64,000 bases of DNA from a virus. The position numbers and the translations under genes are program-made. Location of the stretch: the IMG/VR virus record IMGVR_UViG_3300021335_000003, one strand, 5' to 3'. Of the stretch, positions 3,510-37,422 are shown one piece after another. Position 1 is the stretch's first letter, and the number at the start of each line of letters is the position of its first letter. Below the pieces are notes generated by a model that ran no database searches, was not told the origin of the DNA, and saw nothing but the letters and a program-made list of their open reading frames with translations.

Positions 3510-3857
3510 ATGGACGAACGTCTTCAAAAAGCACTTGATCATAGTAATTACATGGTTACACTTAACAATCAAAAAAGATTGTTAAAAGAACAATATCAAG
3601 AAAATTTAGTATATTATTTTAACGGCGGGCAGTTCACAGTTACACAAGGATTGGTTAGTTTTTGTCAAAGTTTAGTTAGTCTAAATCAAGACGAAACTAT
3701 TATAATTGATGACAACGATTTGCCTATTGCAGTAGATGATTTAAAAAACTTTTTAAGTGAAATTGTTACCAAATACTTTGAAGCAGCAAATAGTTATCTT
3801 GTTGAATACAATCAATTAAAGAAAAACAGAACTGTAGAAAGTGTTGTTAATTTATGA
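3510..3857 (+). CDS. Hypothetical phage protein
   Basis: 115 aa ORF with AGGAG RBS and ATGA overlap with the next gene. Confidence 0.7.
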   Translation: MDERLQKALDHSNYMVTLNNQKRLLKEQYQENLVYYFNGGQFTVTQGLVSFCQSLVSLNQDETIIIDDNDLPIAVDDLKNFLSEIVTKYFEAANSYLVEYNQLKKNRTVESVVNL

Positions 3858-4687
3858 GCAAAGGTGTATTGTTATTTGCCAATAACAATGGAAGTATTGA
3901 TTACGTAAAACAAGCAGTATATTTGGCAAAACGGATTGAAAAGTATTTACAATTACCTGTTAGTTTAGTTACAAGTAACAAATTAACAAAAGAACAATCA
4001 AAGGTATTTGACCAAATTATTCCATCTACTTTATCGGTAGCAAAAAGCAGTACTAAGCGTCATTGTGACGGCGATATGTATGATAAAATAACTAAATTTT
4101 ATAATAACGATAGAGCATCTGCATATGATTTAACTCCATATGAACAAACTATTGTTATGGATACAGATTTTATTATATCAAACAACTTATTGAATAATTG
4201 TTTTATACAAAATAAAAACTTTTTAATTTACAAAGATGCTACGCATGTAGGAATACATACTGGTACTCCTGAATTCCAAAGGGTAAGCGATACTAGTATT
4301 GACTTTTACTGGGCAACAGTGTTCTTTTTTAGAAAATCTCAAGATACACAAATATTTTTTGATTTAATAAAACACATTCATGAAAATTATTTGCATTATC
4401 GAAGTATGTATCAGTTTAGGACCACTGTGTTTAGAAATGATTTTGCATTTAGTATGGCAATACATATTATGAATGGTTATCAAACTGGCGAATTCGCAGG
4501 TACATTGCCTGGTAAAAAGTTTTATGCTATAGACAAAGATGTGTTAATTGATATAGTAGATGATGAAATTAAAATATTAGTTCAAAAAACAAACAGGTTT
4601 GGCGAATATACTGCTGTAAAATTAAAAGGTAGTAATTGTCATGTAATGAATAAGTTTAGTTTGGAGAGAATTATTGAAAACAAATAA
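3854..4687 (+). CDS. GT-A (GT8-like) nucleotide-diphospho-sugar transferase
   Basis: GVLLFA..Y...A N-terminus, DLTPYEQTIVMDTD (DxD), and RNDFAF motif. Confidence 0.65.
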   Translation: MSKGVLLFANNNGSIDYVKQAVYLAKRIEKYLQLPVSLVTSNKLTKEQSKVFDQIIPSTLSVAKSSTKRHCDGDMYDKITKFYNNDRASAYDLTPYEQTIVMDTDFIISNNLLNNCFIQNKNFLIYKDATHVGIHTGTPEFQRVSDTSIDFYWATVFFFRKSQDTQIFFDLIKHIHENYLHYRSMYQFRTTVFRNDFAFSMAIHIMNGYQTGEFAGTLPGKKFYAIDKDVLIDIVDDEIKILVQKTNRFGEYTAVKLKGSNCHVMNKFSLERIIENK

Positions 4688-5522
4688 TTTTACAATGCTG
4701 GCACAAAATAGTGATTTTGATTATGTAAGGCAAGCATACCTTGCAGCTATGAGTATCAAGGCAACAAACAATAACAGCAAAATTTGTTTAGTAACAAACG
4801 ATCCAGTTCCTACAAAGTATAAACAAGTATTCGATGACATTGTAGATATCCCTTGGGGCGATCATGCCGAAAATGAAAATTGGAAAGTTAGTAATCGTTG
4901 GAAAATTTATCATGCAATTCCATATACTGAAACTGTTGTTATAGATACTGATATGCTTGTTTTAGACGATTTGTCTTTATGGTTTGATTTTCTGCAAAAT
5001 TATGATCTATTTTATACTAGCACAGTGACCACATATAGAGGAGAACAAATTCCAAAAGACTCTCATTATAGAAAAATATTTTATAATTTTAATTTGCCTA
5101 ATTTATATAACGGATTTCATTATTTTAAAAAGAGTGACACAGCACATGAGTTTAATAATTGGTTAGAATTAATTACTAACAATTGGCAACAATTTTATAT
5201 ACAGGTTAATAATTCCTTAAAACACCTACCACATCCTAGTATGGATATTACAGCAGCAATAGCAAGTTTAATAATGGATAATCAACATTTAATTACAAAT
5301 AACAAAACTAGATATCCAAGTTTTGTACATATGAAACCAAAAGTACAAAACTGGGTAGATAATTTTAGTTATAGATGGCAAGACAGAGTAGGTGTTTATT
5401 TAGATAATGACCTCAAATTAAAAATCGGCAATTATCAACAAAATGGTATCTTCCATTACACTGAAAAAGATTTTGTTACAAGTAACATTGTAAAGAAATA
5501 TGAAACATATTTAGGAATATAA
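4674..5522 (+). CDS. GT-A (GT8-like) glycosyltransferase, paralog of the previous gene
   Basis: IPYTETVVIDTDML (DxD), NLYNGFHYFKK and FVHMK motifs. Confidence 0.65.
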   Translation: MKTNNFTMLAQNSDFDYVRQAYLAAMSIKATNNNSKICLVTNDPVPTKYKQVFDDIVDIPWGDHAENENWKVSNRWKIYHAIPYTETVVIDTDMLVLDDLSLWFDFLQNYDLFYTSTVTTYRGEQIPKDSHYRKIFYNFNLPNLYNGFHYFKKSDTAHEFNNWLELITNNWQQFYIQVNNSLKHLPHPSMDITAAIASLIMDNQHLITNNKTRYPSFVHMKPKVQNWVDNFSYRWQDRVGVYLDNDLKLKIGNYQQNGIFHYTEKDFVTSNIVKKYETYLGI

Positions 5523-5524
5523 CG

Positions 5525-6073
5525 ATGCAGATAAAACGTTATGTGTGCTTTGAAGAAGACGGATCTATTTACAAAATTACAAATAAACCAGATGATAGGT
5601 TTCAAAACTTAGAAGTAGATTTTTCTGAGGTAGAGGATTTTATTACAGGTAAACGTAGTTTGTTAGAACACAAAGTTGAGTTTGATTTTATTGAAAAAAA
5701 ATATAACATCAAAAGTCAAAAACAACTTAACGATGATAAGCTCATGTGGGCATTTTTATATGAGATTCCTACAACTATGCCGGAAGAAAAGCAAATAGTT
5801 ATTACAAAAAATAACTTAAAAAAACAATGGCAATTGTCAATTGACGAAGAATTTGAAAAACAAATTAATGATCAAAAAATTACAATTGATATGACTAACT
5901 ATTTCTTTAGTGTTACTAAACAAAGTGATCCAAACGTGCTGTACAAACTGCTTAACTTTGATGAAACAATGCAATTACCATTTACAGAAGATTTTGAATT
6001 TGACGATAGCAAAATTTCAGTATATACTACACGTAGATTTGATTCTTATTACTACGAGGAAATAAATGAGTAA
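5525..6073 (+). CDS. Hypothetical protein
   Basis: 182 aa ORF tightly packed within the operon. Confidence 0.65.
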   Translation: MQIKRYVCFEEDGSIYKITNKPDDRFQNLEVDFSEVEDFITGKRSLLEHKVEFDFIEKKYNIKSQKQLNDDKLMWAFLYEIPTTMPEEKQIVITKNNLKKQWQLSIDEEFEKQINDQKITIDMTNYFFSVTKQSDPNVLYKLLNFDETMQLPFTEDFEFDDSKISVYTTRRFDSYYYEEINE

Positions 6074-6980
6074 TACATTTAGAGTTGTTGACTATGACAT
6101 TATCTATCTAAGTTATGATGAACCAAATGCAGAAAAAAACTTTGCAGATTTAGTAAGCAAATGTCCATGGGCTGAACACGTCAGCGGAGTAAAGGGCAGT
6201 GATAGTGCGCACAAAGCCGCAGCAGAAAAATCAACAACAGACAGATTTATTACAGTAGATGCTGATAACATTATAAATGATAACTTTTTAAACCAAGTAA
6301 TCGATTTTGACGAAAACACAGATTTGACAAACAAAGTTATAAGTTGGACTGCAAAAAACATTATCAACGGACTTAGTTACGGTAACGGCGGACTAAAGTG
6401 TTGGCCTAAACAGCATGTGTTAAACATGCGCACACACGAGAATGCACCTGCAGATAATCCACATGCACAAGTAGATTTTTGTTGGGATACACAATATATT
6501 CAAATGAACGGCACATTTAGCACTATTCATAACAATGCTACACCACAACAAGCATGGCGTGCTGGATTCCGTGAAGGTGTTAAAATGGCACTAGATCAGG
6601 GTGTGCGTCCAGACTATGAAGGATTTAAACGCAATCACTGGAAAAACTTACACAGACTTTACATTTGGCTAATGGTAGGAGCCGATGTTGAAAACGGACG
6701 TTGGGCAATACATGGTGCTAGAGAAGGTTTATACAAGACCATGTGTACTGACTGGGATTATATTAATGTACGTGATTTTGATTATTTAAACGATTATTGG
6801 AGCAATAAAGATATTGCCGATATGGAAGAACAAACAGAAGAGCTCGGTGCTAAATTGATACATGAATTAGATATTCCAATTGCAGAAGAATGTTTAAATG
6901 CACAACAAAGTGCATTCTTTAAAAGTGTATATCAAAATCCTGTAAGAGATAACAGTACAAAATTTTTAGATAGAGAGTAA
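6066..6980 (+). CDS. GT-A-fold glycosyltransferase-like protein
   Basis: SYDEPNA, GVKGSDSAHKAAA, VDADN (DxD), YGNGGLK and AWRAGFREGVK motifs. Paralog of the C-terminal domain of 11490..12524. Confidence 0.6.
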   Translation: MSNTFRVVDYDIIYLSYDEPNAEKNFADLVSKCPWAEHVSGVKGSDSAHKAAAEKSTTDRFITVDADNIINDNFLNQVIDFDENTDLTNKVISWTAKNIINGLSYGNGGLKCWPKQHVLNMRTHENAPADNPHAQVDFCWDTQYIQMNGTFSTIHNNATPQQAWRAGFREGVKMALDQGVRPDYEGFKRNHWKNLHRLYIWLMVGADVENGRWAIHGAREGLYKTMCTDWDYINVRDFDYLNDYWSNKDIADMEEQTEELGAKLIHELDIPIAEECLNAQQSAFFKSVYQNPVRDNSTKFLDRE

Positions 6981-6982: not shown

Positions 6983-8356
6983 ATGGAGCGCAGCGAAAGT
7001 GAAGAAATAAAGCGCATTGATGGTATAACACAAGAAATATCACCAACGTTTTGTTTTGCAAAATGGTATCATGCTAACATATATTTCCAAACAGGTGAAA
7101 CACACAGTTGTTATCATCCTGCTCCTCATAAGATTGACACAGCACCGTTATTAGAAAATCCAAGTGCAATACACAACACAGCACAAAAGAAACAAGAACG
7201 TGCTGCTATGATGCGTGGTGAACAACCTAGTGGTTGTAACTACTGTTGGAAAATTGAAGCACTTGGTAAAGATTATGTCAGTGATAGAAAGCAGCGTAAT
7301 CAAACTATTTTCTTCAAGCATAGACTGAATGCTGTAAAAGAAGGTGGTGCAGAGTTTGACGTTAATCCAGAATACTTGGAAGTATCATTTGGCAACGAAT
7401 GTAACTTTAGATGCGGATATTGTCATCCAAAAGCAAGCAGCAGATATTATCAAGAAATCAAACAACATGGTCCTTACACAAATGTTAAAAATCACAGATG
7501 TGATATTGACTGGTTTCAGATATTTGAAGAAGAAAACAATCCGTATTTAGATGCGTTTTGGCGTTGGTGGCCTGAGCTTAGTAAAGAGCTGCACATTCTG
7601 CGCATTACAGGCGGAGAGCCAACAATACAACAAAGCACGTACAAACTGTTTGATATGTTAGACGCAGATCCTAAGCCCGAACTAGAACTAAACTGTAACA
7701 GCAACTTAGGCGGCAAACCAAAGCAGTTAGAAAAGTTTACAAACCGTGTAAATGATTTGCTTACAAATAATAAAATTCGACGTTTTAAAATGTTCACTAG
7801 TATTGACACTTGGGGCAAACGTGCAGAATACATACGTGACGGATTAGACATAGAAGTGTTTGAACGCAATTTGGATTATTTTATGCGTAACTGTGAAGCA
7901 CCTATGGTGTTGATGATTACGTTTAACATATTCAGTGTAACAACATTCCGCACACTATTAGAAAAGATCTTAGAATGGCGTGCAAAATACAATGATGTAG
8001 AAACACACAGATGGCAACGTTTGGGTTTTGATACACCGCATCTAAAAGAGCCGCTGCAATATGATATTAACATTTTGCCAAACAACTATATGACCTATAT
8101 GCGTGACCATTTGCAGTTTATAAAAGAAAATGTAGATGACAATCGCAAAGATGCGTTTAGCACTATTGAGTATGAAAAATTTAGACGTGTTGTTGATTAT
8201 ATGGATACAACAGAATATCCACTAGAAAAAGTTATACAAGGGCGTAGAGATTTCCACAACTTCTTTGAAGAACAAGGACGCAGACGTGGAGTTGATCACA
8301 AACAAGTATTTCCAGAAATGTCAGACTTTTTTGAGTTGTGCAGCAAATACGTCTAG
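6983..8356 (+). CDS. Radical SAM protein with N-terminal twitch domain
   Basis: CNFRCGYC and ITGGEP motifs; N-terminal FCFAKW..HSCYH..GCNYCW. Confidence 0.9.
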   Translation: MERSESEEIKRIDGITQEISPTFCFAKWYHANIYFQTGETHSCYHPAPHKIDTAPLLENPSAIHNTAQKKQERAAMMRGEQPSGCNYCWKIEALGKDYVSDRKQRNQTIFFKHRLNAVKEGGAEFDVNPEYLEVSFGNECNFRCGYCHPKASSRYYQEIKQHGPYTNVKNHRCDIDWFQIFEEENNPYLDAFWRWWPELSKELHILRITGGEPTIQQSTYKLFDMLDADPKPELELNCNSNLGGKPKQLEKFTNRVNDLLTNNKIRRFKMFTSIDTWGKRAEYIRDGLDIEVFERNLDYFMRNCEAPMVLMITFNIFSVTTFRTLLEKILEWRAKYNDVETHRWQRLGFDTPHLKEPLQYDINILPNNYMTYMRDHLQFIKENVDDNRKDAFSTIEYEKFRRVVDYMDTTEYPLEKVIQGRRDFHNFFEEQGRRRGVDHKQVFPEMSDFFELCSKYV

Positions 8357-8935
8357 TACCTGTTTTGACTCAGGCCATTGTACTTTAGACAGATCATTTA
8401 ACCAGTGTTCAACATCAACTTTCCAAAATGTTTGGAATGCACCTTTGTACTCTAGTTCAAATGGATCTTTAAGATATCCATGACGTGACATAATTTTAGC
8501 CCAAGTTCTATGCACTTTGCGTTGGCTTGCTGTTTCTAGGTTATTTGTGCTTACATACATTGGCTTTTCTAGCCCTAAGTAATAAAAACAAGCAGGTGTA
8601 AGCATCTGACTTGTGTGATGATTCATAGGGCTACGATCATTGTTATGTACTTTGTGTCCTCTTATGTCATCTACACGTTCAATAAGCAATGCTGTACGTG
8701 CAGCAATACGATGTGCATTTTTGCCAAGTATGCCCAATTGTTTTAAACTATGTGTGATTGTTGTACCTATTACTCTGTCTTTATAATACAAAAGTATTAG
8801 TGTAGCATCTTCGTGCTTATCAATATAATCAATAAGCACTGTTTTGTTATGGTTGTTGTAAAAGCCTCTAGCAGCAGCACCTTCGTACCAATCTGCTAGA
8901 TCTTGTGTTCCGTCATAAACTTCTAGTCTATACAA
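8321..8935 (-). CDS. Putative GNAT-like acyltransferase
   Basis: Probable TTG start at 8935, coupled to the upstream stop. LILLYYKDRVIG...HRIAART...MYVSTN beta/alpha pattern; weak fold call. Confidence 0.35.
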   Translation of the reverse strand: MYRLEVYDGTQDLADWYEGAAARGFYNNHNKTVLIDYIDKHEDATLILLYYKDRVIGTTITHSLKQLGILGKNAHRIAARTALLIERVDDIRGHKVHNNDRSPMNHHTSQMLTPACFYYLGLEKPMYVSTNNLETASQRKVHRTWAKIMSRHGYLKDPFELEYKGAFQTFWKVDVEHWLNDLSKVQWPESKQVLDVFAAQLKKV

Positions 8936-9917
8936 AAACTTGCGTCCTGTCAATCTTACGTAGATTATCATCTACTTTAATTTCATCTACTTTTTTAGCT
9001 TTAATTTCGTATGCGCATTTGTGTTGTTTTGTGAACTGTGTAATATCTAAATCGCCTGTGTAATATACAACACATTCGTGTGCAACTTTTCTACATAGTG
9101 CTAAACTTGCACCATTTTCAATCGCAACTTTTTCAATTTGCTCTGGATAAACTCTGTCACCACAATTTTCCATTTTAAATGCATTGAATCTACGCCCTGA
9201 TAGTGCAAACTCATCTGCGTCTGTAAATTCTACTAGATCGCCACTGTTCCACCATTCTGTTTGATCTTTGTACTTGCAGCAGAACTCAGTTGTGCCATCA
9301 TCGTGTTTCTCAAACTTGTATTCAATATTAGGATTTATATCACTAAACTTATACACGTCTTGGCGTTCTGTGCTCATAATAACCGGAGGTACTTCTGTGC
9401 TGCCGTAACCTGTGTTAACCTGTTTTGCTCCTTTTGAACGCAAATCTTCCATTAGTCCTGTAGGAGTAATGTCACTGCCTACCTGCATTTGCTTCATACA
9501 ACTTAAATCCAAGTTTTTCCATTTCTTGTGTCTATGCCAAGTTTTCCAAACATTAGGAAGTATCAACATATTTGTCGGCTGTACTTCACGAATTCTATCT
9601 GGTAGATTGGCAACTGTTGTCTCAATAAATGTATCACAGTTTGCAACGTGACAAGGATATAGGCTCATACTTGTAAAACCAATGCCTCTAGGATTGTATA
9701 ATGCCATCATACTACTGTTTGAATCAAGCATGAAATATTCTGCATTGTATTCTGCAACTTTGCGCATTAGTTTTGCACTGTGTTGATATGTTTTAGGATT
9801 ACCAGTTGTACCGCTGGTAGTCACTGTAATATTCCAATTTTCTAAATAGTTAATAACTGCTGATCTCACGTGATCATTGTTACTTTCCATATAGGGTATG
9901 CCGTCAATATAGATCAT
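8928..9917 (-). CDS. AMP-dependent synthetase/ligase (ANL adenylate-forming), N-terminally minimal
   Basis: TTSGTTGNPK (A3 P-loop), GYGSTE (A5), SGD (A7), GR and VYPEQIE motifs. GGAGG RBS. Confidence 0.85.
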   Translation of the reverse strand: MIYIDGIPYMESNNDHVRSAVINYLENWNITVTTSGTTGNPKTYQHSAKLMRKVAEYNAEYFMLDSNSSMMALYNPRGIGFTSMSLYPCHVANCDTFIETTVANLPDRIREVQPTNMLILPNVWKTWHRHKKWKNLDLSCMKQMQVGSDITPTGLMEDLRSKGAKQVNTGYGSTEVPPVIMSTERQDVYKFSDINPNIEYKFEKHDDGTTEFCCKYKDQTEWWNSGDLVEFTDADEFALSGRRFNAFKMENCGDRVYPEQIEKVAIENGASLALCRKVAHECVVYYTGDLDITQFTKQHKCAYEIKAKKVDEIKVDDNLRKIDRTQVFV

Positions 9918-9947
9918 GCTGAATACACCTCCAAATTTGTAATTTTA

Positions 9948-9975
9948 ATTATAGCACAGATTTAGTGTAAGTCAA
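9948..9975 (-). promoter_or_regulatory. sigma70-type promoter TTGACT-N16-(TG)TATAAT
   Basis: Minus-strand -35 at 9975-9970 and extended -10 at 9953-9948, upstream of the ligase gene. Confidence 0.6.
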
Positions 9976-11419
9976 TCCAATTGTTACCATCGTAACCTTG
10001 AAATTTATTAGTATTAACATTAAAGATAATCATGCCTGCTTCAGCAACCATGCTATCTCTATCTGCAAAAGTAGTACCTCTTGCTTTGAATACCGGTACA
10101 GTTAAAACACCATCACCGTCAAAGCTCAAACGTCTTGGATTTGTTTGGTCGTGATTATCACTGCCTTTTGGCAAACTCACAACAAATTTACTTTCTACAT
10201 ATGTATCAGTTGGTGCTGCATCTGCATAGATACCAAACAAGCCACCAGTAACAAAATCTGATCCATTGTAACCTTCGCCTGAAACAATTGCTAGTGGATT
10301 ATCTGTTCCTACAGCAGTTTTTGCATTTACTGTTCCGTTGTATTTTTTAACATTTAAAAATTCTTCATCTGCACTAGTTTCCACTGTGATTGCATCTGAA
10401 AAAATATTCACATCGCAATCAATTGCATCCGTAATATAGCCACCAATTGTTACTACACCATTTACGGGGTGTAACACTGTTCCTTGCGCACTAGCAGTTA
10501 AAGCATCTTGCGCACCGTTTTCATCACTGTATATAAAGTTACCATCAAAATTTCCTCTAATAGTAGCAGGTGCAGTATCACAGTCTGGATCAATAGGATC
10601 GTGTAGTGTAATAATTTCTTGGCCATTGTAATGATGCACATGCGCACGTAATGCAGTATCTGCTCTTGTAGCGCCAAGCATGACAATCGGGCCACGGGCT
10701 AAGTCATCATCGGCAGGTGCTATATGGTGTTCTAATCCACCGTAAAAACTATATTGAGGATGAGTTATTGTAGTGTTTAAGTTTGTTATGTTTGTGGTAT
10801 CTGGAGCACCTTCGTATGTGTCTAAATTTGTACCGATTAAATGCCCGTTTAAATTACCTACAATATTACCTGTAACGTTACCTACCAAATCTCCTGTAAC
10901 ATCGCCTGTGTGTTCGCCTACACTGTTACCAAAAAATTCACCATATGAAGTACCATTGAAGTCTCCACTGAATGTGCCATACACAACACCTTCACTTGTG
11001 ATGTTTCCATATACATCACCATATAGATCGCCTGTAATTGTTGTAGCAGTTACAGTTCTATTTGTAGCATCAACGATTGTTGTACCTTCTGGATCAACAA
11101 CGTTTCCATAAACAGGAGCATTGATTCTAGCATTTATACCGTCAATAAGTTTTGTTGCGCCACTGTTATCATATACACTACCTGATACATCTGCTTTAAA
11201 CAAACGTTCGCTTGCATTATATACAACATTACCTTCTGGATCGTGTATATCACCAACCAATGGTCCATACAATTTTCCTGTAGATACATCAACTTGTATT
11301 AATCCTTCGTTGGATACAACATCTGCTTTAATAACACCTTGCCAACTATCAACAAGTGTAGATTCATCTGCGCCTACAATATCTAATCTATATGCTTCAC
11401 CTGGTATAAAATCTGCCAT
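9962..11419 (-). CDS. Tail fibre-like virion protein
   Basis: GDVTGDLVGNVTGNIVGNL tetrad repeats; C-terminal RDSMVAEAGMIIFNVNTNKFQGYDGNNW fibre motif; late-like motif and GGAGG upstream. Confidence 0.7.
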   Translation of the reverse strand: MADFIPGEAYRLDIVGADESTLVDSWQGVIKADVVSNEGLIQVDVSTGKLYGPLVGDIHDPEGNVVYNASERLFKADVSGSVYDNSGATKLIDGINARINAPVYGNVVDPEGTTIVDATNRTVTATTITGDLYGDVYGNITSEGVVYGTFSGDFNGTSYGEFFGNSVGEHTGDVTGDLVGNVTGNIVGNLNGHLIGTNLDTYEGAPDTTNITNLNTTITHPQYSFYGGLEHHIAPADDDLARGPIVMLGATRADTALRAHVHHYNGQEIITLHDPIDPDCDTAPATIRGNFDGNFIYSDENGAQDALTASAQGTVLHPVNGVVTIGGYITDAIDCDVNIFSDAITVETSADEEFLNVKKYNGTVNAKTAVGTDNPLAIVSGEGYNGSDFVTGGLFGIYADAAPTDTYVESKFVVSLPKGSDNHDQTNPRRLSFDGDGVLTVPVFKARGTTFADRDSMVAEAGMIIFNVNTNKFQGYDGNNWIDLH

Positions 11420-11436
11420 AACGTCCTCCGCTACAT

Positions 11437-11444
11437 TATTTATC
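11437..11444 (-). promoter_or_regulatory. Late-promoter-like motif GATAAATA
   Basis: Upstream of the structural gene starting at 11419. The same octamer recurs at 41416-41423 and 47899-47906. Confidence 0.55.
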
Positions 11445-11454
11445 TATTCTGTTC

Positions 11455-11483: not shown

Positions 11484-11489
11484 TACATT

Positions 11490-25817: not shown

Positions 25818-25821
25818 AATT

Positions 25822-26844: not shown

Positions 26845-26845
26845 T

Positions 26846-29467: not shown

Positions 29468-29472
29468 TAAGA

Positions 29473-30585
29473 ATGAACGAAAATTTAAAATGGTCAAATT
29501 ATGACTTCACTAAAATACCGTTTGATGATATTGTCAGTGTTGGCCAACGTACTCTTTTGTATCGTGATATATTTACAGTATCTTGGTTGTTAGGCAGATT
29601 TTGTAACTATAGATGTAGTTACTGCTGGCCCTATGCAAGAAGTGATAGGAAAGATCATAGACCAACTGAATTATGTTTAAAAACAATTGATGAAATAAAA
29701 AGGCAAGCACGTGAAAACAGTTTTAACAGTTTCCATTTTAGCCTTAGTGGCGGCGAGCCAACTTTCCATCCTGGTTACTTAGATATTTTACAGCATCTTG
29801 CCGATGATGTTGATAATACCAATTATACCTCTGTCCATATGACATCAAACTGTAGCCGTCCAATGAGTTGGTTTGAAGATTATGTAGAACGTGTAAAGCT
29901 ATTTCATAGAGCAAGTATTACAGCCAGCCTACATACAGAACACTTAAATACTCGTGAGAAGATGCAAGACTTTGCAGACAAGTTGATATTGTGTCAGGAG
30001 CATGATGTACAGGTTACGATCAATATGGTTATGGTTCCGGACTGGTTTGAGCGTGATTGGGAAAACGCTCTATTCTTTCATGAGCAAGGTATTAATGTCA
30101 CCCTTAAACCGCAGTCCGACCCTACGGCGTCAAGAATCGTTGAAGGATACAAAGAAGAAGATTTGAAACGTTTATGGAATGGTATGCCACAACGTGCATA
30201 CACAGAAAGCAAACGTGTATGGGCAGAACGTCCAAAGCCAAAGTTTGAAATACCCAAAGATGCATATCACAAACCAGATGCAAGTGTTCCATGGCATTTC
30301 CAAGTAGAGTTTAGAGACAAAGACGGTAAAGCATGGTATATGGATCAAGCAGAACGTTTTAATGCTTTCAACTTTAACAAGTTTAAAGGCTGGAGTTGTA
30401 ATGCTGGTTATCAAGGTATTATCATTCGTGAGCCTGATGGTAGTGTAAAACGTTCATACAGTTGCCATGATGTTCCAATTGGCAATATAGAAACTGGATT
30501 TAAACTATTTGATAAACCAATGCCTTGTATTACAGAAAGTTGTGTAAGTAGTGCAGATAGTAAAATACCAAAAAGAAAGTTATAA
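29473..30585 (+). CDS. Radical SAM protein with C-terminal twitch domain
   Basis: CNYRCSYC and LSGGEP; GWSC..SC..CITESC; paralog of 24052. Confidence 0.9.
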   Translation: MNENLKWSNYDFTKIPFDDIVSVGQRTLLYRDIFTVSWLLGRFCNYRCSYCWPYARSDRKDHRPTELCLKTIDEIKRQARENSFNSFHFSLSGGEPTFHPGYLDILQHLADDVDNTNYTSVHMTSNCSRPMSWFEDYVERVKLFHRASITASLHTEHLNTREKMQDFADKLILCQEHDVQVTINMVMVPDWFERDWENALFFHEQGINVTLKPQSDPTASRIVEGYKEEDLKRLWNGMPQRAYTESKRVWAERPKPKFEIPKDAYHKPDASVPWHFQVEFRDKDGKAWYMDQAERFNAFNFNKFKGWSCNAGYQGIIIREPDGSVKRSYSCHDVPIGNIETGFKLFDKPMPCITESCVSSADSKIPKRKL

Positions 30586-32133
30586 CATTTGCCAAAATTC
30601 ATGTGTTTGACGGTTAGGATCACTTTCCCAACCTAGTACTTGTTTTACATATTCATCTTCTAATTTTAGATCCGTGCTGTGTTCTAATTTATGTATTTTA
30701 TTTACAATGTCTCTATCTTCAACATCACCTACTAGTTGTCCACCAGTGCCATAAACACTATTAGTTCCTAACCCAAATTCTTCAGCCCATTTTATCAAAT
30801 CTTTACGTCTTGCGTTTCGGATTTTCATATTGTTTATTTCTTTTCCGTTAGTTACTACCCAATCTCCGTTATCATCTACATAGTATTCAAACATATTTTC
30901 ATAAAACACAGGAGAACCCGGAAATACTAACATTGTAGTCCCAACTTCGATTTGTTTGATAGGATTGCCTGCAAATTGTCTGTTATTTTTCATCCATTCA
31001 TAATTTTCTTTATGATGTTTTTCTAGTTCGCCAGGATAACCCACAATCATTAAGAGTACTAAATTTATTTTATATTTTTTGTAATGTTCTAAATTTTCAT
31101 GCATTATTTTGTTAGAGAATTTTTTACGCATATGATCACGCACTTCTTCGCTAAAACTTTCAACTCCAATAATCATGCTATGCCATCTTGCTTTTCGCAT
31201 TTTTTTAAATATACGTTCAGGCATTCTTTTAAATATTGCAAGCCCTTGCATTCCTTTAAATGGCGAACCCGCAGCAATAATTAGATCAAGTAACTCTTCA
31301 AATTGTTTTGTGTTACCATTTACTAAGCTATCATAAAAGAAAAACCTATCAATGCCATAAGTATTTTTGTAGTGCATCATTTCGTCAAATATGTTTTGTG
31401 CGCTACGCCAACGGAATTTGGGCCAATATGCTTCTACATCACAAAATGTACATTTTCTAACACAGCCTCTACTACCAATAATTGCTAGTTCGTTACGCTT
31501 TTTATATTTTACATCTCTTACTTGATCACCTACAGGAGAACCTCCTGTGTATTGTGTTACATCTAAACCTGTATAGTCTGGAATTGCCAGATTGTCTAAA
31601 TTGTCTATTTGTTTTGTTTTTATTATACCAGGTTTATATTTTCCTTTTACAATATCAGGTAACACTTCCTCACCTTCACTTAACACTACAAAATCTGCAA
31701 GACCCATTTCTATTATATGTTTGCCGTATTGTGTCATAGGAGCACCTCCTGCAATTATAAGTTTTGCAGGGTCTAATTTTTTAACTTCTGTAGCAAGTTT
31801 TTTAAATGTAGGCAAACTTCTATGACTAAAACAACTTATACCAATATGTGTATGATTTGTAGAAACAATTTCTTTTGCCCAAGAACATATTTCGTCATCG
31901 TACATTTCTTCGCAAAACTGTTTAAATTCTTCACCTTTAAACAATGTTTGATCTGTTTCTAACCAAATACTGTGCCATTTGTCTGTGTGTATTGTTTTTT
32001 GCCATAAGTCAAAATTAAAGTCACGTATTTGTACATCTACTCCATGCTTTTTACAAGCGCCTTGTAAAAAACCAAGACTCAAAGGTGGCACATTTACACT
32101 GTGCTTTGGTATTACACATAAAAATAAACTCAC
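30580..32133 (-). CDS. Cobalamin-binding (class B) radical SAM methyltransferase-like enzyme
   Basis: PPLSLG, IGISCFS, IIAGG and SEGE in the B12-binding domain; GSRGCVRKCTFC; GVES; IVGYPGE. Confidence 0.85.
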   Translation of the reverse strand: MSLFLCVIPKHSVNVPPLSLGFLQGACKKHGVDVQIRDFNFDLWQKTIHTDKWHSIWLETDQTLFKGEEFKQFCEEMYDDEICSWAKEIVSTNHTHIGISCFSHRSLPTFKKLATEVKKLDPAKLIIAGGAPMTQYGKHIIEMGLADFVVLSEGEEVLPDIVKGKYKPGIIKTKQIDNLDNLAIPDYTGLDVTQYTGGSPVGDQVRDVKYKKRNELAIIGSRGCVRKCTFCDVEAYWPKFRWRSAQNIFDEMMHYKNTYGIDRFFFYDSLVNGNTKQFEELLDLIIAAGSPFKGMQGLAIFKRMPERIFKKMRKARWHSMIIGVESFSEEVRDHMRKKFSNKIMHENLEHYKKYKINLVLLMIVGYPGELEKHHKENYEWMKNNRQFAGNPIKQIEVGTTMLVFPGSPVFYENMFEYYVDDNGDWVVTNGKEINNMKIRNARRKDLIKWAEEFGLGTNSVYGTGGQLVGDVEDRDIVNKIHKLEHSTDLKLEDEYVKQVLGWESDPNRQTHEFWQML

Positions 32134-33326
32134 ACGTTATCCCAAATCATTTTATCATTACACATTTTAAAAAGTATTCCTGTACGTGTATTTAATAAAC
32201 TTGCGTGTTCGCCTACGTGTTCAACAGCAACATTTACAAAGTAAGCTCTTCCTGGTTTAAACATATATTCAACACGTTTTTCAAACGTCATTTTCATTTC
32301 AGCAAATGGAATTATAATTCTAAATCCTTGTGTTGTATAATCTTCGTGATCCTTATGAGATTTTGTTTTCCATCCTTTGTGAGTAGTAATATAATTTACT
32401 CTGCATATATCATCAAACTTATCTAACAAATCTCTAGTAGCAGGACCTACTGACTCTTTTAATTCTAAACTTCCTGGTTTGTTTAAACTTACACCTTGAT
32501 ATACACTACTTCTAAATCCCAGGTATGTCATTAAAATTATGTTTATACTTGGACTTATTACAAAATCATTTAGGCGTTTAAGCATATAATTATCTTTTTT
32601 ATCAAAATCATCAAATTCTTTTTGTAGAACATCTACATCTACAGATAATCCTAAATCTACAACATAAGGATATTTTTCTGGTTGTGTAGGATATTTTGCT
32701 TTTACAGGTAAAGTTTCCTCATTTTTCATTTCAAGAAGATATGGATCGTATTTTTTAAAAAGTTTTTCAAAATCTATACTAAAAATATGTTGATCTACAC
32801 CATTAAGACTTTTTATACCTTTGTAATCAAATTCTTGATGCAAGATGTTTCCTGCTACATCTGCATAGCCTTTGTGTTTTAAAGCCCGCACTTGTGCAGT
32901 CATTTTTCTGTTATACTCATATACAGTTAATATTAATTCTTTTTTACCTAACTCGCAAGCTCTTATGGATTGATGTGTTAAAAACCCAAATTCTTTGAAA
33001 TTTAAACTTCTAAATTTTGCTCTTTTAGATTTAAGTGTATATGTTAAATATCCACCTCTATAAGTGTTGTTATCAATTTCATATCCTGCACTAATCGCAA
33101 CATTAGGCATCAACCACACTTTATCTATTTTTTCATCGTTCCATTTTACATTAGATGCTTTATATGCATTCTGATATTCTTCTTCGCTTAGTTTATTATT
33201 TGTTATTCTTTTTAGTTTGTTTAAGCCATAATTCATATAACTTAAAGGCAAATTTAAATCTTCTTCAAATATTTTTTCTCTAAATTTAGTAATTTTAGGA
33301 TCATCTTTATCTAACATAATTATCAT
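32130..33326 (-). CDS. Fusion of an N-terminal GNAT-like/unknown domain and a C-terminal Asp/Asn beta-hydroxylase-like 2OG-Fe(II) oxygenase
   Basis: C-terminal HKD...RIIIP...GRAYFVNVAVEH..R facial-triad pattern. Confidence 0.55.
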   Translation of the reverse strand: MIIMLDKDDPKITKFREKIFEEDLNLPLSYMNYGLNKLKRITNNKLSEEEYQNAYKASNVKWNDEKIDKVWLMPNVAISAGYEIDNNTYRGGYLTYTLKSKRAKFRSLNFKEFGFLTHQSIRACELGKKELILTVYEYNRKMTAQVRALKHKGYADVAGNILHQEFDYKGIKSLNGVDQHIFSIDFEKLFKKYDPYLLEMKNEETLPVKAKYPTQPEKYPYVVDLGLSVDVDVLQKEFDDFDKKDNYMLKRLNDFVISPSINIILMTYLGFRSSVYQGVSLNKPGSLELKESVGPATRDLLDKFDDICRVNYITTHKGWKTKSHKDHEDYTTQGFRIIIPFAEMKMTFEKRVEYMFKPGRAYFVNVAVEHVGEHASLLNTRTGILFKMCNDKMIWDNV

Positions 33327-34084
33327 TTTAAAGATTCCTTTTTCATCAAAAACTTTTCAATAATCCAACCATCTAAGTCCCATTCCCACCATTTGACTTT
33401 TGTAGTATAACTGCCAGGATTAGCATGATGATTGTTATGCCATCCGCTTCCACCAAAAGTTGCATAAAGATTTACCCACCAATTATTTGTGCTTTGGTCT
33501 TTTGTTTCAAAATTTCTATATCCAAATTTATGACATAGTATGTTTATTGCTGCACCACTTAAAAGTCCTGTTGCTCCTGGAATAGCAAATAGATAAATTG
33601 CAATACGTGGATCTATAATAAATGCAACTATTAATGTTAAATACCAAATTGTAAAGTACCAATCACGCAAAAATTTATGAAATGGATTTCGTAGCAAATC
33701 TCTAACTACACTAGGATTTACTGGAACTTTATCATTTAACCAAAAAAATGTTTTCCAAGTTTCTGAAGCAGGATGAGGATCACCTTCCCTATCACTGTTT
33801 TTATGATGTACTCTATGATTAGCCGTCCAAGTTAAACTAGGACCAAAACCACCATATACTCCTAAGAATGTTAAAATGTTTTCTACTGTTCTGCTTGTAG
33901 TAAAACTTCTATGCGATAGTAATCTATGATAACCAATTTCTAAACCTAAATTAGCAAATATATATTTTCCAAACACAGATAACAGTAGCCATATAGGATC
34001 CCAATAAAATATTAAACCAATAATGCTTGTTATGTAAAGCACTGATTGTAAAAATAATAGTTTTTGATGAAAAGTTTTTAACAT
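33323..34084 (-). CDS. Membrane fatty-acid desaturase (delta-9/DesC-like)
   Basis: Three His boxes (HRLLSH, HRVHH, HNNHH), DPHP motif and hydrophobic TM segments. Confidence 0.9.
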   Translation of the reverse strand: MLKTFHQKLLFLQSVLYITSIIGLIFYWDPIWLLLSVFGKYIFANLGLEIGYHRLLSHRSFTTSRTVENILTFLGVYGGFGPSLTWTANHRVHHKNSDREGDPHPASETWKTFFWLNDKVPVNPSVVRDLLRNPFHKFLRDWYFTIWYLTLIVAFIIDPRIAIYLFAIPGATGLLSGAAINILCHKFGYRNFETKDQSTNNWWVNLYATFGGSGWHNNHHANPGSYTTKVKWWEWDLDGWIIEKFLMKKESLK

Positions 34085-34087
34085 TTT

Positions 34088-34885
34088 TTAACCTTCTAAA
34101 TATAAATCTACTTCTTCTGATCCTTGTATGTGTAATGCATAACTGTTTGATTGTTTTGCTTTTACAATTTGTTCTTGTAATGTATGCTTCAACTGTCTTT
34201 TTACATTTGCATCTTTATATTGTATATAGTTTGTAGGATGAAATACATCGCTTTGATAAATTGAAACTTGTTCGCTATGTGTAGTATATCCATTGACATC
34301 GCAGAATTTTTTTGCAACATGTGTTGTTAGCATAGGTCCATTACCATAATCTACATAACTAAATCTTTTATCTACAGGCAAGTCTAATTGTTCTAAAAAA
34401 GCATCAAGCATTTCATTTATAAATTTTCCTCTTGGCTCACTGCCTATTAAATTATTACAAAGGTATATGTCTGTATTGTAAAAATTATAAACATTTACAA
34501 AGTTCTTTACGCAATCTCTTAAACTTAAACCTGTTGGTGTTTTTTTAAGTTTTTTATTTTCTGGTATATGCGGAAATTGATATGTGCAAAAAGCAGGAGT
34601 ACTTAAAAAATTTTTTATATCTTTTAAAAACATAACATCTAAATCTGCATACACTCCGCCATATTTTTTTAAAATGCATAATCTGACATAATCTGAAATC
34701 ATGGTTGGACCATAGTGTTTTTTTAAATACTTGTAGGTTTTGTCGTTTCTAAATTCTGCTTCTATATTTTCATCACGCCAATTAGTAATTCTAAAGTTTG
34801 GCATAGCATCACGCCAAGTTGGCGTAAAATCAAAAGTAGGTATTTTTTCACCTATCCAAACATTATGTAGAACACTAGGTATCAT
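34088..34885 (-). CDS. GT32 (Och1-like DxD) glycosyltransferase
   Basis: MIPSVLHNVWIG and SDYVRL...YGGVYADLDV motifs. Confidence 0.85.
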   Translation of the reverse strand: MIPSVLHNVWIGEKIPTFDFTPTWRDAMPNFRITNWRDENIEAEFRNDKTYKYLKKHYGPTMISDYVRLCILKKYGGVYADLDVMFLKDIKNFLSTPAFCTYQFPHIPENKKLKKTPTGLSLRDCVKNFVNVYNFYNTDIYLCNNLIGSEPRGKFINEMLDAFLEQLDLPVDKRFSYVDYGNGPMLTTHVAKKFCDVNGYTTHSEQVSIYQSDVFHPTNYIQYKDANVKRQLKHTLQEQIVKAKQSNSYALHIQGSEEVDLYLEG

Positions 34886-35465
34886 GTAAAATTCTATCTA
34901 ATTCGTTAAATGATATATTTGATTGCCAATTACAAGCAACTCTATAATGATTATCAGGATGATCAGGTATAAGTTCATATGCCCCATGAAGTATTTTTGT
35001 ATTCATAATATGAGGAGTTGACATATTATGCACTTCAGCAGGTTCAAACCAATCGCAATGTTGAATTGTGTATTCTATACCACCTGGAGCAATCCTATCT
35101 ACATCATAAATTTTGTCCTTAGGAGGATCATAAAATGCTGTACCTGCCCCTTCACTATGTACAACAGGAAAAAATAAACTACCTTCTTTATCGTGATTAT
35201 GTGGCTCACATTGATAAAGCTGCTTCGACGGATCATTATAAGATAAAAATAAAATACCTGGCGTCAAATTAAGAGAATTTTTAAATTCAGATAAAATAGG
35301 AAATTTATCGTACATAATTTTTAGAGTTTCTTCAGTAGATCCTGCATAATGCATATATTTGTACCTACCTTGAAAACGTTTGTCATTTTGCACAAGATTC
35401 CATACACCTTTAATTGCTTCAAATACATCATGTATAATAGGATTATCAATTTCTTTCACATACAT
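34875..35465 (-). CDS. Putative 2OG-Fe(II) oxygenase/cupin
   Basis: PHNHD, GTAFY and NTKILH...R motifs. Confidence 0.45.
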   Translation of the reverse strand: MYVKEIDNPIIHDVFEAIKGVWNLVQNDKRFQGRYKYMHYAGSTEETLKIMYDKFPILSEFKNSLNLTPGILFLSYNDPSKQLYQCEPHNHDKEGSLFFPVVHSEGAGTAFYDPPKDKIYDVDRIAPGGIEYTIQHCDWFEPAEVHNMSTPHIMNTKILHGAYELIPDHPDNHYRVACNWQSNISFNELDRILHDT

Positions 35466-35467
35466 AA

Positions 35468-35953
35468 TTAAAACCTTTTATTGATTGTAATATAATTATC
35501 ATATTTTTTGTGCCAACCTGTGATTTCTTCAATTTCCGAAAAATATGTTTTCCAGTTTTTATTCCAGTCTTCGTAATCTTTATAGAAAAAATTTAATTTG
35601 CCTATGTTATCATTTTTCCAATTAATCCAGGCGTAATAAATATCTTCTGTTTTCTTTTCTTCTTTGTTAGGAAAATTATGAGATACCCAAAAATCTACTC
35701 TGCGTTTCTTTATACTTTTCCAAAATGCGTCAAAATCTTTACAGGTTGCAATGTAAAATACATTTGGATCTAATTCTAGCAATGAACCAGAAGGTCCGTG
35801 TATATTGTAGTAAGCAGGATTTTGTCCTAATGGTGTTAAGTGCTTCCAAAATGTTTGTTTGCGTGTTACTGTAAAGTTTTCTTTTACAGTAGCATGTAAC
35901 CAGTTTGTGCCAGTTCGTTGCAAACCAATTACATGATAATGTTTGTACTTCAC
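35468..35953 (-). CDS. Short sulfotransferase-like (PAPS-binding P-loop) protein
   Basis: GLQRTGTNWL 5'-PSB-like motif, WKH and YED. Confidence 0.55.
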   Translation of the reverse strand: MKYKHYHVIGLQRTGTNWLHATVKENFTVTRKQTFWKHLTPLGQNPAYYNIHGPSGSLLELDPNVFYIATCKDFDAFWKSIKKRRVDFWVSHNFPNKEEKKTEDIYYAWINWKNDNIGKLNFFYKDYEDWNKNWKTYFSEIEEITGWHKKYDNYITINKRF

Positions 35954-36663
35954 ATAAGAACCTTTTGACTATCCAAACTTATTATTAAATGATTGCGAGG
36001 AGTATTTCCTCCATTTACAGCATAATGTTTTACACCTGGATTTACCAGCCAAACACTACCATCAGCAGGAATATGCTCTCTATATTCGTTACCGTCTTTA
36101 TCCCAACCGCCGTTAAAACATTTATCATTAGTTTCTAGTGCAATGTGCAGTCTTATACCATAAAGTGTGTCATAGTCTATATGAGGTTTAACTTCGCTAT
36201 GTGGTGCTAGATTTGCAAATCGAGTCCTGTGCGACCCTGTGAACGTGTCGAGTACCTCACGTAAATACAAAGGAACATCATCTTTAACTTTTCTATACCA
36301 GCGTTCATCTGCTTTAGGATCACGTTTTGCTACTCTTGTATCCCAAGCACTACCACTTAATTCAGTCCTTTGGCTTATATCATATGACTCGTCAAACTCA
36401 GTCAAACTTAATTGTTGATAACTAGACGTTTCCCAGTCTAAATCACAAACACAATCAACTTTCTCTAGTTCTTCTTCTTTGAAAAACATTTTTGGAAGTT
36501 TAGTATGTGTTTCGCACATATGAGCGTAGTCACTGCCAAGCCCATCCCAAACTTTGTCTGCTGCAAACTGATTTAATTCTTCCTTGAGTCTTTTGATGTC
36601 AAATCTGTAATCAAGTCTAGCAATGACTGGTAGTTCGTGTCGTCCTTTCCAGCTACTTGACAT
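35950..36663 (-). CDS. Aspartyl/asparaginyl beta-hydroxylase-family 2OG-Fe(II) oxygenase
   Basis: PHID, RLHIAL and GSVWLVN...H.A.N.G..PR.HL motifs; GGAGG RBS before 36663. Confidence 0.8.
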   Translation of the reverse strand: MSSSWKGRHELPVIARLDYRFDIKRLKEELNQFAADKVWDGLGSDYAHMCETHTKLPKMFFKEEELEKVDCVCDLDWETSSYQQLSLTEFDESYDISQRTELSGSAWDTRVAKRDPKADERWYRKVKDDVPLYLREVLDTFTGSHRTRFANLAPHSEVKPHIDYDTLYGIRLHIALETNDKCFNGGWDKDGNEYREHIPADGSVWLVNPGVKHYAVNGGNTPRNHLIISLDSQKVLM

Positions 36664-36702
36664 TTTAACCTCCAATATACTTCTCCAACTGTATTTAATC
36701 CT

Positions 36703-37422
36703 TTAGACCACAGGTGTGGTTTTATCTTTGATGAATATTTTTTCAATTATCCAACCAATCAAATCATATCTGTGTAATCTGTACTTATTTGGATTATCAT
36801 GATGCACATCATGGAAAGCATCACCAAATGTAATTAAAGCTAACCAAAGAACGGTTCTTGGTTGATAATCTTTATGTGCCCAACTTAAAACTAAAGTTCC
36901 AAAAAACAAAGTCAATGCTGCCGGAAAAAGTAATCCATAAACTGCGAACATAGGATTTATAAGTAAAAATAAAATTAAAACACTGAAACATATTTTTGTG
37001 TAGTATTTGTGTTGCCATTTATAAAAGCGGTCACGCATTAAATCTGTAGCATATCTGCCTTCTACTTCAGCAAACGCAGTAAAAAATTGCACTCTCCAGA
37101 ATCCTAAATGATCTGGGCTATGTGGATCTTTGTCTGTATCTGCAAACTTATGATGTTTTCTATGTATTGCTATCCAAGTTATAGCACTTCCAGTGAAACT
37201 AAAAGTTGTAATGAAAGCAAGTGTATATTCCAACCATTTAGGACAAGTGAAACTTCGATGGGTTAGTAACCTATGATAAGTCATTATCATGCCTAGTCCA
37301 TTGAATACAAAATACAATAATGCACCAACTAGCCACTGCCACCAACTTGCAAACATAATCATAGGTATTACTGATAGATATGATAAAATTTGTAATCCAA
37401 ATATTTGGAATCTAATATTCAT
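36703..37422 (-). CDS. Second membrane fatty-acid desaturase
   Basis: His boxes HRLLTH, HRKHH and HDVHH; DPHSP. Confidence 0.9.
   Translation of the reverse strand: MNIRFQIFGLQILSYLSVIPMIMFASWWQWLVGALLYFVFNGLGMIMTYHRLLTHRSFTCPKWLEYTLAFITTFSFTGSAITWIAIHRKHHKFADTDKDPHSPDHLGFWRVQFFTAFAEVEGRYATDLMRDRFYKWQHKYYTKICFSVLILFLLINPMFAVYGLLFPAALTLFFGTLVLSWAHKDYQPRTVLWLALITFGDAFHDVHHDNPNKYRLHRYDLIGWIIEKIFIKDKTTPVV

Follow-up and report, generated by a model that had tools for sequence, protein, structure and literature searches.

The IMG/VR record IMGVR_UViG_3300021335_000003 includes a 64,000-nt stretch of DNA (here called the window) that carries, at positions 3510-37422, an island of twelve radical S-adenosylmethionine (SAM) genes among genes for sugar-transferase-like, methyltransferase and other tailoring enzymes. 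The island belongs to an uncultured marine T4-like jumbo phage and sits in its tail-fibre, or host-recognition, region. We propose that the island is functional and that its enzymes, expressed early, assemble a sugar-based glycoconjugate and then edit it by radical chemistry, a reading to which we give an even chance. Its transferases, a BtrN-like domain in the radical SAM proteins and the sugar genes found both around a radical SAM paralog elsewhere in the window (56497-57423) and in the cassettes of related phages point to sugar assembly followed by radical editing. An original prediction, made from the window's letters, had claimed a glycan-type enzyme mix and a phage origin; both are supported here, as is the intactness of the genes. 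Genes are named by the lower coordinate of their reading frames.

Twelve radical SAM genes of four classes

The CxxxCxxC motif predicted for twelve open reading frames (ORFs) is present in every one of them (6983, 13755, 14831, 16677, 18912, 21567/21594, 22739, 24052, 25795/25822, 27511 and 29473 on the plus strand, 30580-32133 on the minus strand), and radical SAM models match. Pfam Radical_SAM (PF04055) matches ten of the twelve with E values of 3e-5 to 5e-20, nine of them reaching the 29.5-bit cut-off; 6983 stays below it with 24.7 bits, but scores 298 bits on the NCBIfam model NF033640. The pair without a PF04055 match, 14831 and 25795, have radical SAM NCBIfam and SPASM matches and are paralogs of 13755. 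Annotation with hidden Markov models (HMMs) and a synteny comparison across related contigs, both proposed as checks in the original prediction, yielded four classes and a backbone shared by 81 loci. Six proteins have an N-terminal twitch domain, three are C-terminal SPASM-like, 24052 and 29473 form a separate pair, and one is B12-binding. The principal members are as follows.

6983-8356, plus strand: N-twitch enzyme of a module shared with Ralstonia phage RsoM2USA (NF033640, 298 bits; 35% identity to RsoM2USA ORF349).
13755-14834 and 14831-15901, plus strand: two SPASM-like radical SAM enzymes, recognized by motif, NCBIfam matches and Cys-rich C-terminal domains.
16677-18077, plus strand: the most conserved N-twitch enzyme of the island (NF033640, 426 bits; dN/dS, the ratio of nonsynonymous to synonymous substitution rates, 0.08).
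18064-21610, plus strand: PP-loop/N-twitch cassette with PP-loop gene 18064, radical SAM 18912, PP-loop paralog 20209 and 21047, which resembles a short-chain dehydrogenase/reductase (SDR) and is short.
21567-25188, plus strand: N-twitch enzymes 21567 and 22739, and radical SAM 24052 (N-terminal core, 16 Cys).
25185-29447, plus strand: variable cassette of FkbM 25185, radical SAM-SPASM 25795, SGNH-like 26759, N-twitch 27511 and SGNH-like 28590, mostly absent from relatives.
29439-30585, plus strand: radical SAM 29473 behind a sigma-70-like promoter (29439-29467).

The N-twitch class (NF033640, N_Twi_rSAM) comprises 6983, 16677, 18912, 21567, 22739 and 27511. The scan with NF033640 took in the first four, whose full-length scores of 298, 426, 187.5 and 248 bits exceed the cut-off of 170, and 22739 and 27511 were assigned as aligned paralogs. 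A seventh paralog, at 56497-57423, lies in the window outside the island together with QueE, and its neighbours are nucleotide-sugar epimerase, pyridoxal-phosphate (PLP) enzyme and amidinotransferase genes. All seven carry the signature C-x~18-C-x~41-48-CxxC upstream of CxxxCxxC; of the eight window proteins with a radical SAM motif beyond residue 80, the only one without the signature is the B12-binding enzyme. The four cysteines are kept in 341 of 362 phage and 171 of 202 bacterial N-twitch homologs. The archetype of the twitch domain is BtrN, the butirosin 2-deoxy-scyllo-inosamine dehydrogenase (PDB 4M7T), whose ligands C169/C188/C232/C235 have what we take to be the same spacing as the four-Cys domain, and the family profile aligns its N-terminal domain to the BtrN twitch region with an E value of 0.0025. 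In BtrN, however, the twitch follows the radical SAM core, whereas here it precedes it, and overall sequence similarity is marginal. The family is large (6,933 clusters at 50% identity in public data, E <= 1e-30) and known so far as a catalogued entry, whereas here it appears in arrays of 6-14 copies per phage, with fixed partner genes and a link to Bdellovibrionota. Many of its top relatives are 790-1,400 aa long with two profile matches each, that is, tandem fusions of two N-twitch units.

The SPASM-like proteins (13755, 14831, 25795) combine an N-terminal core with a Cys-rich C-terminus. PF13186 (SPASM) is matched by 25795 at 23.3 bits (cut-off 21.5) and by 14831 at 18.9 bits, below the cut-off; 13755 has no Pfam SPASM match, and five of its C-terminal cysteines are invariant. 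The minus-strand gene 30580-32133 matches PF02310 (B12-binding, 42 bits) and PF04055 (72.8 bits), reaches no equivalog cut-off and recurs in one other IMG/VR contig in a pattern-limited search.

Putative sugar transferases and other tailoring enzymes

Five glycosyltransferase-like genes had been predicted. For three the assignment gains from fold or family: 6066 and 11121 adopt a GT-A fold and 34088 is of GT32 type, while 3854 and 4674 stay candidates through a GT8-like lead and a DxD motif.

3854-4687 and 4674-5522, plus strand: paralogous GT8-like (DxD) nucleotide-sugar transferase candidates, from a language-model lead and the DxD motif.
6066-6980, plus strand: GT-A-fold glycosyltransferase-like protein with a C-terminal helical domain (AlphaFold pLDDT 83; 45% identity to RsoM2USA ORF350).
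ORF 11121, probable start 11490, to 12524, plus strand: GT-A-fold transferase, paralog of 6066 (44% identity to RsoM2USA ORF348).
34088, minus strand: GT32-type transferase (Gly_transf_sug, Pfam 6.8e-14).
12508-13551, plus strand: class I SAM methyltransferase with an N-terminal helical-repeat domain (pLDDT 93; Foldseek SgvM/PsoF/NodS, probability 1.0).
25185, plus strand: FkbM methyltransferase (8.5e-14).
8928-9917, minus strand: truncated AMP-binding/adenylating enzyme (Pfam AMP-binding, 4.8e-13).
33323, minus strand: desaturase-like (FA_desaturase, 5.5e-16).
36703, minus strand: desaturase-like (FA_desaturase, 3.7e-11).
35950-36675, minus strand: Asp/Arg (LpxO-type) hydroxylase-like (1.2e-8).

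Aspartates D65 and D67 of the DxD motif are invariant in the 6066/11121 family, and its GT-A match runs over residues 3-177 with Z scores of 8-10.7. The model of 6066 aligns to B4GALNT1 (Z 10.7), STIV A197 (10.0) and SunS (9.1), and Foldseek pairs it with GT2 enzymes and with PBCV-1 A64R (probability 1.0), to which it aligns structurally at Z 7.3. Since nucleotidyltransferases of the same fold also reach Z 8.5-9.5, 6066 and 11121 are putative sugar transferases. The nearest ESM Atlas clusters of 3854 and 4674 are nucleotide-diphospho-sugar transferases/GT8 (a lead only); the two proteins have no Pfam match and show 33-35% identity to RsoM2USA ORF353/352. Profile searches of the PDB by sequence came back empty for the GT-A and methyltransferase families.

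Both predicted methyltransferases were confirmed, 12508 by fold and 25185 by its FkbM match, as were the adenylating enzyme and two desaturases by the Pfam matches listed above. The helical repeat of 12508 is ~25 aa long (consensus EDLRKAVLExNLHSLFRLL) and occurs in 2 to >7 copies, the number differing between close relatives (32 orthologs); bacterial homologs are longer, at 411-448 aa. Of the oxygenases, the Asp/Arg hydroxylase 35950 stands, and for the two others nothing emerged beyond motifs seen by eye. The PP-loop pair 18064/20209 keeps an invariant SGGxDS and a C-terminal CxxCxxC, the latter of which may point to QueC-like proteins, but its HMM matches are weak and run through the SGGxDS region only, and the SDR call on 21047 is weak too. 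The three SGNH proteins (15944, 26759, 28590) and the sulfotransferase-like protein (35468) stay candidates by motif, their motifs having been seen by eye and no HMM or PDB match being found. Membrane segments occur only in the two desaturase-like proteins; the radical SAM and transferase proteins are all soluble.

Promoters and predicted expression timing

Across the first 40 kb, the sites that fit the sigma-70 consensus best lie exactly in the few short gaps ahead of operon starts.

3460-3488, plus strand: consensus sigma-70 promoter TTGACA-17-TATAAT (12/12) in the 51-nt gap before 3510.
2250-2278, plus strand: sigma-70-like promoter before 2296.
11455-11483, plus strand: sigma-70-like promoter before the probable start of 11121 (11490).
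29439-29467, plus strand: sigma-70-like promoter before 29473.
9975-9948, minus strand: sigma-70-like promoter (11/12) before 8928.
37480-37452, minus strand: sigma-70-like promoter before 36703.

Six of the ten sites scoring at least 11/12 fall in ~1% of the sequence, for which we estimate a chance below 1e-7. Upstream of 3510 orthologs a 12/12 match lies within 80 nt in all four loci; 18 of 37 relatives have an 11-12/12 match before 29473, and 13 of 21 a 10-11/12 match before 8928. Scores upstream of internal genes are at background level. The T4-type late box ATAAATA is depleted in the whole window (8 seen against 37.8 expected), as is TATAAATA (1 seen against 11.3 expected), a pattern that fits avoidance of a T4-type late promoter word in the rest of the sequence. 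The eight sites are 11437, 13120, 35636, 41416, 41993, 47899, 48744 and 60473, and the minus-strand copies mostly lie just upstream of minus-strand gene starts. A late box precedes the fibre-like genes 9962-11419 (in 10 of 18 relatives too) and 39870-41384. T4-like phages use consensus sigma-70 promoters for early expression and the TATAAATA-type box for late expression, so the enzymes would be made soon after infection by host RNA polymerase. With sigma-70-type promoters on the enzyme operons and a late box on the embedded fibre genes, the enzymes are probably not simply co-regulated with virion genes; enzymes and intermixed fibre genes seem to follow different timing. As far as can be seen, this early/late split with its conservation is new in this analysis, as are the folds of 6066 and 12508.

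A mosaic island under purifying selection

Comparison of 81 related loci shows a mosaic: cassettes are inserted, lost or swapped around a fixed backbone, 11121 - 12508 - f2 - 13755 - (14831) - 16677 ... 22739 - 24052 ... 29473, where f2 is the small protein described below. Gene 16677 has 159 IMG/VR relatives at 82-98% identity and matches 2,145 public proteins at E <= 1e-5. Eighteen island genes, all backbone genes included, are under purifying selection, with dN/dS of 0.05-0.33, values that are approximate because dS is near saturation. Two possibilities raised against the original prediction, that the contig is cellular or that the radical SAM paralogs are decaying, are answered by the viral flanks and by these ratios.

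Three large related contigs (137-256 kb, CheckV 38-72% complete) extend the picture. In the 256-kb and 246-kb contigs the flanks are the same, the island spans 54 and 59 kb, and there are 19 Pfam radical SAM matches each and 12-14 N-twitch genes over the cut-off. One large relative adds a NAD epimerase/dehydratase (1.4e-42), a 2-oxoglutarate oxygenase and a TctA transporter to its island. The last, a tripartite tricarboxylate transporter subunit (G001:C1:187613-188902, L086:17613-18902; Pfam 2e-57), stands at the end of that island. At another island end a ThyA-like thymidylate synthase abuts (G002:C1:207055-207906, minus strand) and is absent from the other two large contigs.

Could the enzymes decorate DNA instead? 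Hypermodification of phage DNA, with glycosylated or otherwise decorated bases, seems to us highly improbable. The window does encode a 7-deazaguanine module, and T4-like phages are known to glycosylate DNA; Pyle et al. 2024 appears in the reference list of PMC12619734. However, a hydroxymethyl-pyrimidine synthase is not conserved: PF00303 is found in one of the three large relatives, where it is ThyA-like, although absence from such incomplete contigs is unproven. The island holds no DNA-binding or base-exchange enzyme, it lies in the fibre region and not among DNA-metabolism genes, and homologous clusters exist in bacteria in many copies. DNA as a target, one of those named in the original prediction, finds no support.

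Homologous clusters in Bdellovibrionota and in a Ralstonia phage

The island core is not phage-specific and is also found on Bdellovibrionota chromosomes, where clusters were read on contigs of 0.8-3 Mb. In a pattern search of one genome per prokaryotic species, the N-twitch family is mostly found in Bdellovibrionota, and it exceeds the cut-off in 31 of 151 sampled Bdellovibrionota, 3 of 251 Pseudomonadota and none of 14 control genomes, with 6-19 copies in single genomes. Bdellovibrionota homologs are 64-67% identical to 29473, 59-62% to 16677, 47-52% to 22739, 41-46% to 13755, 35-46% to 24052, 36-43% to 11121 and 37-39% to 12508. A quick maximum-likelihood tree nests the phage 16677 clade in a Bdellovibrionota grade, and for 22739 the two groups are interleaved, which hints at gene flow between phages and Bdellovibrionota in either direction. 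Ten recurrent neighbours in the bacterial clusters have no informative Pfam match. Also recurrent in these clusters is a pair of proteins, neither with a Pfam match, of which one crosses the membrane several times (262-327 aa) and the other is small and anchored by its N-terminus (132-167 aa).

L098:2509-3958, L095:11574-12757 and L099:5735-6921: membrane/anchored protein pairs.

Other phyla have matches in marine metagenome-assembled genomes (MAGs), where they are confined in each case to one or a few contigs (two to six); some of these carry f2 as well. Phage-type islands (f2, and 16677 at 52-59% or more) stand on MAG contigs L133, L136, L144, L163, L131 and L107, under the labels Gammaproteobacteria MED685, Acidimicrobiaceae NP20, Chloroflexota NAT137, Rickettsiales MED657, Crocinitomicaceae and Neisseriaceae. 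Five of these six MAGs were searched, and in all five the N-twitch genes lie on one or a few contigs (two to six); these matches are probably phage contigs binned into bacterial MAGs.

A cultured phage carries part of the system. In RsoM2USA (MG752970, 215.9-222.3 kb) eight co-oriented, overlapping genes, ORF347-354, are all annotated hypothetical, and seven of them are homologous, in the same order, to 3510, 3854, 4674, 6066, 6983, 11121 and the methyltransferase half of 12508 (26-45% identity). ORF351 stands at the position of 5525 and has no BLAST match to it. The module differs from the island: it has a single radical SAM, lacks the SPASM class and f2, and its methyltransferase is without helical repeats. 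The operon follows virion genes ORF356, 359 and 361, whose products are present in RsoM2USA virions (PMC8504454); the genome paper does not discuss ORF347-354. This synteny with the left block of the island is, as far as can be seen, new.

A broader idea, which we hold only tentatively, is that giant phages and predatory Bdellovibrionota, both of which kill Gram-negative cells, share an undescribed core making a new class of radical-edited surface or attack molecule for recognising or remodelling prey envelopes. That core would combine a GT-A transferase with a repeat-bearing methyltransferase and with radical SAMs of the SPASM and N-twitch types, and it would be diversified by swapping paralogous radical enzymes.

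The same bacterial clusters bear on a quite unlikely alternative, a soluble small molecule, aminoglycoside-, cyclitol-, nucleoside-like or a cofactor, made during infection or predation and acting on host or competitors. The substrates of BtrN, the profile match BlsE (cytosylglucuronate decarboxylase), viperin and MoaA are all small sugars or nucleotides, the outlying paralog 56497-57423 has neighbours of the kind seen in aminocyclitol pathways (a PLP enzyme and an amidinotransferase), and the Bdellovibrionota clusters lie outside polysaccharide loci. Soluble radical SAM and transferase proteins and early-type promoters would also suit such a product. A conjugate is a better fit, however, to five transferase-like genes and membrane lipid enzymes; cassette hypervariability beside fibre genes is typical of surface-recognition regions, and the window's island has no scaffold-forming enzyme (cyclase or synthase), resistance gene or exporter.

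The 74-aa protein f2 and possible peptide maturation

An ORF list with a threshold of 80 aa had missed one backbone gene.

13538-13762, plus strand: f2, a 74-aa helical, Trp/Tyr/His-rich protein with a TTG start that overlaps both neighbour genes.

Public data hold >3,200 clusters of f2 at 90% identity with no Pfam family, and it is very abundant in metagenomes; a scan against PHROGs found no match. Its gene is translationally coupled to the first SPASM radical SAM and strongly conserved (dN/dS 0.13), which brings in a further possibility, that SPASM and N-twitch radical SAMs modify a ribosomal substrate, f2 or the fibre proteins, with sugars added afterwards. We regard this as unlikely. Several observations nonetheless speak for it, besides the aromatic- and His-rich composition of f2. 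The SPASM class, which like the maturases MftC, PqqE and anSME has an N-terminal core and a Cys-rich C-terminal domain, finds its best NCBIfam matches among maturases of peptides and metalloenzymes; SunS and ThuS, two peptide S-glycosyltransferases, are among the proteins that the GT-A model resembles; and fibre genes flank and interrupt the island, as proven virion genes precede the RsoM2USA module. Unlike in MftC, PqqE and anSME, however, equivalog scores are far below the cut-offs, as are all the maturase matches, and there is no RRE and no recognisable precursor besides the uncertain f2. No RRE/PqqD domain, leader peptidase or exporter was found by Pfam and/or NCBIfam among the 37 ORFs of at least 80 aa, and the SPASM-class motif begins at residue 13-29, which leaves no room for an N-terminal peptide-binding domain. 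Conservation of f2 is strong along its whole length, like that of a folded protein, its candidate acceptor Lys45 is not conserved, and f2 is absent from both the Bdellovibrionota clusters and the RsoM2USA module. A complex prediction of f2 with radical SAM 13755 scored 0.00 and weighs neither way. Kinship of f2 with the N-terminal repeats of 12508 was considered and rejected; the repeats fold as a compact helical domain and, in the model, look like a scaffold rather than a multi-core precursor.

Boundaries and neighbourhood of the island

The window is AT-rich (28-41% G+C). A continuous run of overlapping plus-strand genes extends over 3510-30585, interrupted by three minus-strand genes at 8321-11419, and is followed by a minus-strand run at 30580-37422. 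In line with the predicted translational coupling, genes overlap by 1-17 nt at most boundaries. Bracketing by tail-fibre genes is upheld by the phage flanks, with a tail-fibre PHROG match on the left (3-1325) and an Mtd_N match on the right (39870-41384); interruption by such a gene is suggested by composition, a weak PHROG match and a late box at 9962-11419. The remaining features are these.

3510-3857, plus strand: 115-aa protein, first island gene (39% identity to RsoM2USA ORF354; no family match).
5525-6073, plus strand: 182-aa protein with positional counterparts in RsoM2USA and relatives G001 and G002; no family match.
8321-8971, minus strand: 216-aa protein, inserted as a pair with 8928-9917; no family match.
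9962-11419, minus strand: fibre-like Gly-rich protein (composition, weak PHROG match 7e-4, late box ATAAATA at 11437-11443).
15944-16684, plus strand: 246-aa protein, SGNH-like by motif only; no family match.
30580-37480, minus strand: variable block with transcription order 36703, 35950, 35468, 34875, 34088, 33323, 32130, 30580.
32130, minus strand: 398-aa protein; no family match.
34875, minus strand: 196-aa protein; no family match.
35468, minus strand: 161-aa protein, sulfotransferase-like by motif only; no family match.

Pfam, NCBIfam, PHROGs and PDB sequence searches returned nothing for 3510, 5525, 8321, 15944, 26759, 28590, 32130, 34875 and 35468. The minus-strand block 30580-37480 is shared with one other IMG/VR contig only. 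PHROG matches in the flanks include a tail fibre, an HNH-type protein, an ATPase, an exonuclease, QueE and GTP cyclohydrolase, and sugar genes occur at 53961-62417, 16-25 kb from the island. GenBank phages gave zero Megablast matches to 41 kb of the window. The nearest isolates by the virion-protein homolog 37464-39860 are large cyanomyoviruses, at 39% identity. This 798-aa minus-strand product joins a subtilase (Peptidase_S8) match and a plastocyanin/azurin-type copper-binding domain in one protein, and its homologs in S-SSM7-like cyanomyoviruses adjoin petE. A cyanophage identity found no support, psbA being absent from the three large related contigs. Two Asp/Arg beta-hydroxylase-family genes are present, 35950-36675 (minus strand) inside the island and 41430-41987 (minus strand) among fibre genes, the second with a late box just upstream at 41993-41999; the family is counted as core in pelagimyophages (PMC7029224).

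A model for the island

What would such an island do in an infected cell? On the glycoconjugate reading, the enzyme genes would be transcribed by host RNA polymerase early in infection, separately from the late fibre genes. The GT-A, GT8 and GT32 enzymes would transfer sugars, and the N-twitch radical SAMs may then oxidise, epimerise, deoxygenate or otherwise edit sugar carbons, the expansion of paralogs presumably serving different positions or sugars. Further decoration could come from the methyltransferases, the PP-loop proteins (amidation-type activation), the B12 radical SAM (C-methylation) and the acyl and lipid enzymes. Because the promoters are early-type and membrane lipid enzymes are present, we lean slightly towards a host envelope glycolipid as the target, the cell surface being changed during infection, over the virion fibres. 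The virion stays in play since the island lies beside structural genes in two unrelated phages.

Several points weigh against this reading, the near-saturated dS noted above among them. No sugar-nucleotide synthesis gene, flippase, initiating transferase or ligase was found in 3510-37422, and of the marks of an O-antigen or capsule locus (Wzx/Wzy, ABC export, initiating transferase, nucleotide-sugar synthesis) none is there. DegT and Wzx genes were located in four Bdellovibrionota genomes and stand far from the N-twitch clusters there; this lack of linkage in bacteria is, as far as can be seen, also new in this analysis. The position of f2 directly before SPASM-class radical SAMs and the leaning of that class, far below cut-offs, towards peptide and metalloenzyme maturases tell against it too. 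The early timing comes from consensus promoter matches and the T4 paradigm, not from RNA data, and we know of no NF033640 member with a known substrate.

The model is related to earlier descriptions of virus-encoded glycosylation. Freeman et al. 2023, an entry in the reference list of PMC12619734, are said to describe glycosylation of mycobacteriophage capsids and tails; virion glycosylation systems of this kind, including PBCV-1 with A64R, likewise place virus GT-A transferases near structural genes, but they are without radical SAM, and the island's promoters look early rather than late. Radical SAM enzymes are costly to a cell or virus and sensitive to oxygen. That twelve of them, and ~20 in relatives, are kept under purifying selection in a phage of the oxic ocean argues for an important gain. 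The closest counterpart is the host-recognition cluster of marine pelagimyophages and cyanomyophages, which is hypervariable and contains glycosyltransferases (Zaragoza-Solas et al. 2020, PMC7029224). Like it, the island lies between tail-fibre genes, is rich in glycosyltransferase and tailoring genes and varies by whole cassettes; its fibre flanks and its mosaic structure in 81 loci are those of such a cluster. Unlike in the phages described there, contigs reach 256 kb (~70% estimated completeness), none of the three large ones has psbA, and the structural proteins of cyanomyoviruses are only 39% identical to those of this lineage. The same paper mentions in one sentence radical SAM cassettes that differ between two genomes, leaving these genes unanalysed. 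Apart from that passing mention, the original statement that no characterised phage pathway has this size still stands, and a literature search on N-terminal twitch domains, on Bdellovibrio with radical SAM and on marine jumbo phages with radical SAM found no study of this system or of NF033640.

N-twitch chemistry becomes testable, since the island supplies fixed partner genes and since RsoM2USA and Bdellovibrionota isolates offer ways in through cultures. The contrast of early-type enzyme operons with late fibre genes suggests that marine myophages keep, in their 'host-recognition cluster', two sets of genes with separate functions. That predatory bacteria share the core prompts the question of whether gene flow or a shared strategy connects phages and bacterial predators.

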